Below, piece after piece: positions 62,515 to 64,000 of a stretch of 64,000 bases of DNA (position 1 is its first letter; the number at the start of each line of letters is the position of its first letter). The position numbers were made by a program, and so were the translations under genes. The notes beneath the pieces were generated by a model. That model was given only the letters and a program-made list of their open reading frames with translations, was not told the DNA's origin and did no database searches. Source of the stretch: Clostridia bacterium (lineage in GTDB: Bacteria; Bacillota; Clostridia; CAKSNL01; HGM11501); NCBI GenBank assembly GCA_045545475.1, contig JAZQAZ010000034.1, positions 33,287 through 97,286 of the forward strand. The letters are read 5' to 3'.

Positions 62515-62534
62515 ATGTTTATTTTTTTATGTTT
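62507..62534. repeat. 14-bp tandem direct repeat, two copies plus a partial third
   Basis: atttttttatgttt occurs at 62507-62520 and 62521-62534, then aatttttt. It spans the stop of the reverse-strand peptidase gene. Confidence 0.8.
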
Positions 62535-62992
62535 AATTTTTTAAGGAGATTTTTTAATGCTCGTTTCGGAAGGCGAAAACGATTTTTTGCCTTTTTTTCT
62601 TTAATCATTTTCTCGGTATAGCGAGAATATTCTTCGCATTCGGAGAAGATTATTTCAATATCGTCTCTTATCATTCCTGATGCCACAGCAATCATATGTT
62701 GCCTTAAAATACCTTTTTCAAGAACAGTCTGATTGTCTCCGCACATTGTATAAGCATTACGTTCTTTTCTTATAACTCTGTGAAGAACGAATTTGCCGTC
62801 ATCTCTTTTATATAAAATTATATCTCCGGCTTTTACCTCATCGGGTAACGGGGAAAGAATAACTGAATCGTATCCTTCACGGATAAGAGGAAGCATGCTT
62901 GTTCCCCTGGGCATCATTGGAAAGGTATAGCCATTTTCAAGGGTTTCCCTTATCAGTGGCTCTAAGTCCTTCATGGAAAAGCTGATGCCCAT
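62519..62992 (-). CDS. S24/S26-family serine peptidase-like protein (157 aa)
   Basis: MPRGTSMLPLI (Ser-Met nucleophile motif), AGDIILYKRDDGKFVLHRVI. ATG 62992 lies 6 nt after ggagg and 1 nt after the PqqD stop. Confidence 0.7.
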   Translation of the reverse strand: MGISFSMKDLEPLIRETLENGYTFPMMPRGTSMLPLIREGYDSVILSPLPDEVKAGDIILYKRDDGKFVLHRVIRKERNAYTMCGDNQTVLEKGILRQHMIAVASGMIRDDIEIIFSECEEYSRYTEKMIKEKKAKNRFRLPKRALKNLLKKLNIKK

Positions 62993-62993
62993 T

Positions 62994-63263
62994 TTAATCC
63001 TCCAGAGCACCGATGGAAGAAAGGGTGCTTATAAATTTGGTTATATCGGCATTTGCTGTTGCTTCATCAACATCATATTCGTTAAGGAAAGCATCAAGGA
63101 TTTCTTCTTTGCCCTTGCCTTCCGAGATGAGGTTAAATAAAAAAACACCTGTTTCGTTTAATGTAATGATTTTATTTTTGAGGTCTGGGTTAAGAAACAT
63201 TAAAATGTTTTCTCCGGCAATTTCCTTTAATATAAAGCCTGATTTGATTTTCATTTTTATCAT
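62994..63263 (-). CDS. PqqD-family protein (RiPP recognition element-like)
   Basis: ..LNETGVFLFNLISEGKGKEEILDAFLNEYDVDEATANADITKFISTL is the typical PqqD layout. ATGA overlap with the upstream gene. Confidence 0.75.
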   Translation of the reverse strand: MIKMKIKSGFILKEIAGENILMFLNPDLKNKIITLNETGVFLFNLISEGKGKEEILDAFLNEYDVDEATANADITKFISTLSSIGALED

Positions 63264-63964
63264 CCTTTCTTATTCATTGTCCGCTCGGCAATGATTGCGG
63301 CTTCATCTGATATATTGCATGAAAGTCTGTATGCAGGAATATGATTTAAAAAACTGTCAAGTAGAGTGAACAGTTTTTCGGTGGCTTCTTTTTCTTCAGG
63401 TATATACAACTGGTCAAATATTTTTAAGAGAACCTCTTTGCTGCTTATGGGACAGATACTGTTTTTTTTGGATCTTTCAATAAAGCAAAGGGCACCGACC
63501 TTTGCACGGGCGTTTTTATTATAGCCTTCTTTTCCGCACCAGGGAGTGCCGTATACATAAAACTCCCCGTCAATAAGTCTGAAAATGGGTTTATCCCCGT
63601 TTATTATAAAAGAGCCGGGGAAGTTTTTGAGCCACAGCATCGAATGGGTGGTTTTTCCCGTTCCGCTTTTAGCAGTAAAGACGTAGGCAACACCTTGATG
63701 AACCACCACGGAAGAATGCATCATAAAGGCGTTATGTGAAATAACCAGCGAACAGATTTTTCTGTAAAGACAAAGGGATTCGTGATAAGGAACAGGGAAG
63801 GCGGGTTCCTTCTTTGCGGCAAGAAGGAGATCATCTTCTGTAACCTCAACGGTGAAGTCGGCTTCATCTTCGGTCGTTACTACATAATCCTTTATAAGGT
63901 CAAGGGTGCATTTATACTTTATTTTTATATCGAACAACAAGTCGCAAAGCTTAAGCTTAAGCAT
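63260..63964 (-). CDS. HPr-kinase-related P-loop protein (234 aa)
   Basis: AFMMHSSVVVHQGVAYVFTAKSGTGKTTHSMLW, resembling the HprK C-domain P-loop. RBS ggaggg upstream. Confidence 0.6.
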   Translation of the reverse strand: MLKLKLCDLLFDIKIKYKCTLDLIKDYVVTTEDEADFTVEVTEDDLLLAAKKEPAFPVPYHESLCLYRKICSLVISHNAFMMHSSVVVHQGVAYVFTAKSGTGKTTHSMLWLKNFPGSFIINGDKPIFRLIDGEFYVYGTPWCGKEGYNKNARAKVGALCFIERSKKNSICPISSKEVLLKIFDQLYIPEEKEATEKLFTLLDSFLNHIPAYRLSCNISDEAAIIAERTMNKKG

Positions 63965-64000
63965 TTTACACCCTCCTTACAAATATACTTATTTCAGTAT

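Follow-up and report, generated by a model that had tools for sequence, protein, structure and literature searches.

What do three tightly packed genes for a kinase-like protein, a PqqD-type domain, and a signal-peptidase-like protein do in a clostridial genome, and does their position beside a broken sigG gene bear on the answer? We examined these questions in a stretch of 64,000 nt from a Clostridia bacterium (assembly GCA_045545475.1, contig JAZQAZ010000034.1, positions 33,287–97,286), referred to here as the window. The three genes, which we call A, B, and C, or together the trio, all lie on the minus strand near the 3′ end of the window. Gene A (63260–63964) encodes a 234-aa ScmC/LppK-like P-loop kinase, gene B (62994–63263) an 89-aa discrete PqqD-type recognition element (RRE) of pathways for ribosomally synthesized, post-translationally modified peptides (RiPPs), and gene C (62519–62992) a 157-aa soluble leader peptidase resembling signal peptidases of the SipW/archaeal type. 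From comparison with a set of fetched loci (labeled L001–L090), we consider it probable that A-B-C is a self-contained operon for the core of a ribosomal peptide maturation pathway like that of linear polyphosphorylated peptides (LPPs); within this reading, we infer the chemistry, the RRE-dependent cleavage, and the substrate, while the gene structures, folds, and catalytic residues, the relationship to LppK, LppB, and LppS, the constant gene order, and the spread of the family are shown by the comparisons below.

Comparison with LPP clusters

LPP clusters of Bacilli, with the order lppA-K-B-S-D-N, were published in May 2026 (Popov et al., Nat Commun 2026, PMC13381572). The description drew on 126 clusters, most of them from Bacillales, and what the pathway finally makes and does in the cell is still to be found (PMC13381572). 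Its parts are the precursor LppA, the HprK-like kinase LppK, the discrete RRE LppB, the signal peptidase I (SpI)-like peptidase LppS, the MsbA-like exporter LppD, and the NTP-transferase LppN (PMC13381572). The LppA leader carries the motif YxxPxVLxHQxIxFETxxS, that is, Px9Fx[T/A], and in a heterologous host LppK placed up to four phosphates on core Ser3 (PMC13381572). LppS, a peptidase of the SipW/archaeal signal-peptidase type with a Ser-His-Asp triad (catalytic S29/H68/D93), cleaves the leader only with LppB, onto which its N-terminal helix docks, and the unphosphorylated precursor acts poorly as its substrate (PMC13381572). Supplementary Data 1 of that study lists more peptidase clusters beside “other” RREs, which were left unstudied there; in its sequence similarity network (SSN), cluster 9 includes uncultured Ruminococcus and Firmicutes CAG:56, and cluster 4 includes Desulfitobacteriaceae and Anaerocolumna (PMC13381572).

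As an LPP reference, we used a Paenibacillus cluster (L090) that was located through its LppS (97% identical) and that has the order lppA-K-B-S-D-N. Precomputed annotation assigns its LppK to PF27840 (ScmC) and its LppB to PqqD. The gene A product aligned with this LppK (BLASTP E = 2e-10, 22% identity over 211 aa; hhalign, 98.1% over 135 columns), and just 44 columns, around the P-loop, aligned with the lasso kinase of the same locus. Gene C matched LppS at 33% identity (E = 4e-14), with a Ser-to-His spacing of 39 residues in both. The folds of the window proteins agree with this relationship. The likeness extends to a ScmC-family kinase, a discrete PqqD RRE, an anchor-less Ser-His-Asp peptidase, the kinase-RRE-peptidase (K-B-S) order, and tight coupling of the genes; the N-terminal helix of gene C also resembles the LppS helix that docks on LppB, and some relatives of the trio add an MsbA-like exporter and a peptide with a YxxP leader.

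There are clear differences as well. The window proteins are only 22–33% identical to their Lpp counterparts, the host is a gut clostridium rather than a member of the Bacilli, and the surroundings are housekeeping genes rather than capsule loci. The window operon has no lppA-type precursor, exporter, or NTP_transf_5 gene, and many relatives are missing B, or both B and C. When all lpp and lasso proteins were compared with the window by tblastn, matches were confined to A, C, and, at a distance of 21 kb, a generic ABC ATPase; LppN had none, and LppD had just that ATPase. A profile of B scored 85–102 bits on the RREs of SSN clusters 4 and 9 but only 30–42 bits on LppB and the lasso B1 protein. 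Likewise, a profile of the C family scored highest on SSN cluster 9 (147 bits), against about 90 bits for cluster 4 and 45–70 for LPP cluster 1. Since B and C group with the “other” RRE clusters 9 and 4 and not with LPP cluster 1, the window cassette is, as judged by these profile scores, a sister branch of the LPP core, glimpsed in the data of the LPP study but unanalyzed there (PMC13381572).

These relationships allow a mechanism to be proposed. The gene B protein would hold a peptide or protein precursor, encoded elsewhere, by its leader. The gene A protein would transfer phosphate from ATP to this bound substrate, and analogy points to a Ser close to the cleavage site as the residue modified. 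The gene C protein (Ser32/His71/Asp86) would then remove the leader once it is presented by B, with its N-terminal helix docking on the B-leader sheet. The initial annotation of this DNA had read the trio as peptide recognition, modification, and leader cleavage, and this is partly supported, in that the homologous lppK-lppB-lppS set phosphorylates its precursor and removes the leader (PMC13381572). Its accompanying statement that pairs of HprK-related kinases and PqqD proteins have no known product is outdated, as the LPP study supplies one (PMC13381572).

The three proteins

Gene A starts at an ATG preceded by GGAGG, and its product has a PEPCK/HPr-kinase fold, with the Walker A motif SGTGKTT at residues 100–106 (63667–63647). 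An exact database look-up of the product gave no record, and profile searches gave only faint matches to phosphoenolpyruvate carboxykinase (PEPCK), HprK-related kinase A, and ScmC. A word-indexed search retrieved 1,600 homologues, nearly all of about 235 aa and annotated “hypothetical,” which are assigned to a newer Pfam family, PF27840 “ScmC.” An alignment of 41 homologues contained 24 invariant columns, among them H83, the Walker A motif including K104, H107, W111, N122-D124-K125-P126, and the motif GTPWCGKE. Of the earlier description of this protein as HprK-like, the P-loop and the HprK/PEPCK fold stand, whereas identity with a bona fide HPr kinase does not: there was no match to PF07475 (Hpr_kinase_C), and the HprK N-terminal domain is lacking. 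PEPCK itself was also rejected as an assignment (E only 0.02–0.07; N-terminal and lid regions lacking), as were ScmC of the SynChlorMet system and HprK-related kinase A, whose curated NCBIfam cut-offs of 125 and 200 lie far above the scores obtained, 13.8 and 15.4 bits.

Several described systems share parts of this arrangement. Gene A differs from HprK/P and ATP-dependent PEPCK in having peptide-tailoring proteins as partners. SynChlorMet ScmC/ScmD and HprK-related kinases A/B (TIGR04249, TIGR04352, TIGR04355) likewise pair a kinase-like protein with a PqqD-like one, and the A homologues fall within PF27840; however, the window lacks the radical S-adenosylmethionine (rSAM) genes ScmE/ScmF, and none lies beside the trio. 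A literature search on ScmC, SynChlorMet, and HprK-related kinases returned nothing useful. Among database representatives, the A domain was also found fused with Peptidase_S24, NTP_transf_5, a Tyr-phosphatase domain, and an N-terminal rSAM domain. The fusion representatives are P0322, P0360, P0337, P0452, P0369, and P0401, which could be gene-calling mergers.

For gene B, the earlier assignment of the 89-aa protein to the PqqD type held (PF05402, E = 1.1e-14). Its best NCBIfam matches were lasso PqqD chaperones, below cut-off.

Gene C has the signal-peptidase/LexA fold; its triad is of the ER/archaeal type, and a membrane anchor is lacking. It matched Peptidase_S24 (E = 1.5e-5), and its best NCBIfam match was sigpep_I_arch (E = 1.7e-8). 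Its motifs GxSMxP, HR, and GDN are those of the ER/archaeal-type (S26B) signal peptidases, such as SipW and Sec11, with a Ser-His-Asp triad; it differs from them in lacking an anchor and in scoring 34.5, below the family cut-off of 51.85. The triad residues are Ser32 (62897–62899), His71 (62780–62782), and Asp86 (62735–62737), all on the minus strand. Sixteen columns are invariant across the family, including G30, S32, M33, P35, H71, R72, C84, G85, D86, and Q88. The structural model has a 13-residue N-terminal helix and a long, basic, amphipathic C-terminal helix, and no hydrophobic transmembrane anchor was found in either the sequence or the model; the protein is predicted to be cytoplasmic. 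The initial annotation had called it LexA/signal-peptidase-like. The signal-peptidase half of that description was borne out, and the LexA half, which implies a Ser-Lys mechanism, was not, as the Lys of the YKR motif is variable and His71 is invariant. A LexA/UmuD-type S24 protein was rejected on the same residues and on the lack of a helix-turn-helix domain.

Operon organization and expression signals

Gene A is preceded by the ribosome binding site (RBS) GGAGG (63972–63976, minus strand), 7 nt ahead of the ATG, as read from the sequence. Its promoter lies past the window end, and DNA beyond position 64000 was judged from relatives at 76–88% identity. In these close relatives, a 168-bp divergent promoter region lies upstream of A and is followed by a ThuA gene. 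At the A/B junction, an ATGA overlap (63263–63260) is real. Homologues of gene B begin, however, at a second ATG (63254), which would give an 86-aa protein and lies 5–6 nt past the gene A stop, and an AAAGGA site is better placed for this ATG than for the overlapping one. The true start of gene B is therefore more likely to be the ATG at 63254, on the strength of homologue starts and site spacing, and the ATGA overlap is possibly not the start used. A and B are translationally coupled whichever start is used.

At the B/C junction, the B stop codon TAA (62996–62994) and the C ATG (62992) are separated by a single base (62993), with GGAGGA 5 nt upstream. The list of open reading frames (ORFs) gives a GTG at 63010 as the start of C; homologues fit the ATG. 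The earlier account of three tightly coupled genes was thus correct in coordinates, strand, the 1-nt gap, and the existence of the overlap, with only the use of that overlap as the B start in doubt. The operon is closed by an intrinsic terminator hairpin (62470–62506) that works in both orientations, being followed by U5 when read on the minus strand and by a run of T when read on the plus strand. It has a folding energy of −18.3 kcal/mol (z = −6.1), none of 200 shuffled sequences was as stable, and it is kept in relatives with compensatory changes.

Distribution and gene neighborhoods

In a survey that took one genome per species, relatives of A were present in at least 575 species, and the best 80 species were gut and rumen Clostridia, including Oscillospiraceae, Lachnospiraceae, Ruminococcus, and Acetatifactor. 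A HMMER search of 1.84 billion representatives, which are clusters at 50% identity, returned 13,501 A-like proteins at E ≤ 1e-3; with the threshold tightened to 1e-10 and then 1e-30, 8,598 and 2,511 remained. Profile hidden Markov models built from the loci were then applied to the 77 loci with room downstream of A. The full A-B-C arrangement was found in 44 of the 77, A-C in 17, A-B in 4, and A alone in 12. Gene order was constant across loci, with genes mostly overlapping or almost so, and the K-B-S order was the same in all 44 A-B-C loci. Conservation of the trio as a unit, on which the initial annotation had staked its reading, is therefore real for these 44 loci, and the others retain A-C, A-B, or A by itself.

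No universal fourth gene emerged when the neighbors in 83 loci were clustered. Some neighbors were specific to clades: 20 loci have a gene for a 219-aa membrane protein ahead of A, and about 12 have one for a small lipoprotein there. An exporter with ABC_membrane and ABC_tran domains, a make-up like that of LppD, follows C in about 10 of the 83. Searches against libraries of anti-phage defense and phage families (PADLOC, PHROGs) gave no matches. In one locus (L035:4505–8726), A and B follow phage portal-, scaffold-, and major capsid-like genes on the same strand, and this could be a prophage copy or a chimeric contig of a metagenome-assembled genome.

Taken with the relationship to LPPs, this distribution shows that the cassette is part of a much larger sister branch of the LPP machinery in gut and rumen Clostridia, mostly as a stripped kinase-RRE-peptidase core without a linked precursor. 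Although its existence is no surprise in kind, the branch makes a widespread but so far unexplored pathway, one that would phosphorylate peptides or proteins in gut anaerobes, directly accessible to experiment.

Candidate precursor peptides in related loci

The initial annotation had seen no precursor, rSAM enzyme, or lasso cyclase, and ORF, motif, and tblastn searches likewise found no precursor or lasso cyclase in the window and no rSAM gene beside the trio. In particular, the window contained no small ORF that is preceded by a Shine-Dalgarno (SD) site and has a YxxP leader, nor one with an MKYxAPxAEL leader. Eight related loci, in contrast to the window, hold precursor-like peptides of 38–63 aa with strong SD sites adjoining their A genes. 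The peptides share a leader, MKY(x)xAPxAE[LV], which includes the lasso/LPP RRE-binding motif [Y/W]xxPx[L/V/I/A]. A specific regular expression for this leader had 11 matches in 1.2 Mb read in six frames, and all were these peptides or the lasso precursor of L090. None of the peptides matched a known precursor family in NCBIfam.

The most complete layout is that of L084, where a 63-aa peptide beginning MKKQYKAPEIEILLFD (L084:6287–6478) is followed by A, B, C, and an ABC exporter. In three loci, A-B-C is followed by a peptide (L049:3965–4132, L075:9540–9701, and L079:8160–8315), a maturase with rSAM/SPASM domains, and an exporter. L083 has two peptides (5383–5520 and 5644–5781), an S-layer homology (SLH) protein, an rSAM/SPASM gene overlapping the A start, and a further peptide (8847–8987). 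In the remaining loci, a peptide and an SLH protein stand beside A (L059:1805–1921, L077:7019–7165, and L087 at about 4541 on the minus strand). The eight loci support a peptide-tailoring role for the A family, and those named here, L084, L049/L075/L079, L083, L059, L077, and L087, offer candidate precursors. The trio itself is a minimal three-gene system open to testing.

The leaders also invite comparison with lasso peptides. Paeninodin-type lasso clusters (kinase, B1 RRE, B2 protease, C cyclase, NTP transferase, and ABC exporter) resemble the cassette in combining an HprK-related kinase with a discrete RRE, and the related-locus leaders MKYxAPxAELxxLEV resemble the lasso leader MKKEWLKPELEVLEVNQ of L090. 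The cassette differs from them in being without an Asn-synthetase-like cyclase and a transglutaminase-type B2 protease. Neither the lasso macrolactam cyclase nor the B2 protease of L090 had a tblastn match in the window, and neither was found in the surveyed related loci.

Weighing the peptide maturation reading

A number of observations weigh against the trio being the core of an LPP-like pathway. No precursor was found in the 64-kb window or, for most relatives, in the DNA up to 8 kb from the trio. Matches to the published leader motif of LPPs, [YW]xxPx9Fx[TA], in the window or near the trio across 89 loci were chance ones, none of them credible. The operon stops at the terminator after C, with no exporter or NTP_transf_5 gene. 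Pairwise similarity of B to LppB is weak (E = 0.06), and the motifs GTPWCGKE, INGDKP, H107, and W111 of A are not in LppK; as these are its most conserved motifs, the same substrate chemistry is not guaranteed. Gene B is dispensable, in that 17 loci retain A and C without it, and A stands by itself in 12. Finally, the cassette is inherited with housekeeping synteny and is not patchy like typical RiPP clusters. With no precursor in cis, the substrate must be encoded elsewhere in the genome. This shows that the substrate is unlinked in most genomes, including that of the window, and it makes one ask how a pathway that depends on an RRE would reach a substrate encoded at a distance.

A different kind of substrate is suggested by genes next to A. 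In at least 15 loci, A is directly preceded on its own strand by a gene for an SLH protein or a lipoprotein with a related C-terminal tail. The SLH proteins are at L039:2263–3135, L074:7116–7970, L077:7190–7978, L083:5845–6627, L087:3636–4340 (minus strand), and L059:1982–2773, and the lipoproteins are in L020–L022, L027, L028, L040, L062, and L076. Their tails include TTKENMLPFVPFS, TTRENQLPMITF, REGENMNTELPGY, and ...GENMNTELPGY..., with the consensus [E/D][N/D]xLPx[F/Y]. The MKY-leader peptides end in EDKLPDFYE or KDVLPNFFE and hence share this tail. The last nine residues of both the peptide and the SLH protein of L059 are NNMGGSDDL, identical despite four synonymous nucleotide differences.

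On this basis, the cassette could instead serve a widespread, vertically inherited housekeeping modification of envelope proteins rather than a natural-product cluster; A, helped by B and C where present, would modify or process exported SLH proteins and lipoproteins, as well as the MKY-leader peptides, recognizing them by the C-terminal tail. The shared tails of peptides and envelope proteins, their preservation in L059, and the inheritance of the cassette with housekeeping neighbors, usually with no exporter, would all fit. We nevertheless regard this explanation as unlikely. The clade of the window lacks such an upstream gene, and no window ORF has an “LPxF” C-terminal tail; were the explanation right, substrates in window-like lineages would be encoded elsewhere. 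Several of the tails are without any Ser, Thr, or Tyr, the A, B, and C proteins are cytoplasmic by prediction but the tail-bearing proteins are exported, and the characterized relatives all act on the N-terminal leaders of small peptides (PMC13381572). It is more doubtful still that A is a PEPCK-like small-molecule metabolic kinase to which the PqqD and peptidase neighbors are secondary. The A-only loci are what this explanation would predict, but leader peptides occur near even A-only loci, and all recurrent partners and fusions of A are peptide-tailoring proteins (S24/S26 peptidases, PqqD, rSAM/SPASM, and NTP_transf_5). Furthermore, A has significant similarity to LppK, a peptide kinase, and its similarity to PEPCK is marginal (E as given above), with the PEPCK N-terminal and lid regions lacking.

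Two further explanations concern the fate and origin of the trio, and both seem to us very improbable. One holds that it is a decaying, non-functional remnant of a RiPP cluster, as the missing precursor, exporter, and NTP-transferase in cis and the variable architecture across genomes might suggest. The ORFs are, however, intact and coupled, strong RBSs and the terminator are retained, and the invariant columns of A (24) and C (16) persist down to about 35–40% identity. The cassette is moreover kept in the 575 or more species of the survey, and gene A accounts for the 2,511 clusters at E ≤ 1e-30. The other holds that the trio is cargo of a mobile or (skin-like) intervening element inserted in sigG, with a function tied to the element or to sporulation control. 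Here, 60 bp separate the end of gene C from the point where sigG breaks off, both this break and the junction are conserved in five species, and in one unrelated genome A-C directly follows spoIIGA-sigE. Against this, neither a recombinase nor the 3′ half of sigG was found in the window or within 10 kb beyond A in relatives, where ThuA, an AraC regulator, and isoleucyl-tRNA synthetase (IleRS) lie instead; the phage and defense libraries gave no matches; and most of the other 70-plus loci have the trio in unrelated contexts. A sister clade has the trio with the same ThuA, AraC, and IleRS neighbors and no sigG nearby. An LPP-like peptide maturation core thus remains the reading we favor for the trio.

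The sigG fragment beside the trio

The DNA next to gene C carries a 5′ fragment of sigG (62160–62459, plus strand), which is convergent with gene C and comprises 98 SigG codons followed by Asn-Val-stop. The fragment, with 99 codons, is real, and tblastn aligned it with SigG residues 1–98 at 65% identity. From the T-run on the plus strand after the hairpin, the operon terminator also ends the sigG fragment. The initial annotation had placed the trio on DNA that disrupts sigG, and this part of it was not supported. The fragment adjoins gene C only in the window and in L001–L004 and L010–L012 (A identity 61–88%), whereas L013 and L014, in which A is 57% identical, have the same block of trio, ThuA, AraC regulator, and IleRS with no sigG nearby. 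The neighborhood of the trio is therefore older than the sigG junction, and the trio is very probably not the cargo of a small element. Its adjacency to sigG seems incidental, so that whatever split sigG should no longer be taken to include the cassette.

The fragment itself does not look like a decaying gene. Counterparts lie at L001:11484–11783, L010:3556–3855, L011:9482–9781, and L012:9472–9771, and the ORF, the two extra codons (Asn-Val), and the 14 nt after the break (window 62160–62475) are conserved in the five species, with the break point and these 14 nt identical in all of them. Pairwise pN/pS (nonsynonymous to synonymous differences) between the truncated genes is 0.07–0.13 at pS of 0.5–0.8. 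Strong purifying selection together with a fixed break suggests that the truncated sigG is no pseudogene but belongs to a split gene that the cell still uses. The 3′ half of sigG was found neither in the window nor in the fetched loci. A split would be odd for a sigma factor of the forespore, since the genes in which intervening elements are known are not, like sigG, forespore-specific.

The genes just upstream of this fragment (window 60678–62148), spoIIGA and sigE, encode intact proteins of 301 and 239 aa and show the overlap that is usual for their operon, and the sporulation pathway accordingly does not appear to have generally decayed. A separate juxtaposition with the sigE locus was seen in an unrelated genome (L060:1653–4562), where spoIIGA-sigE is followed by A-C on the same strand, at the place where sigG normally lies; this is the second, independent instance.

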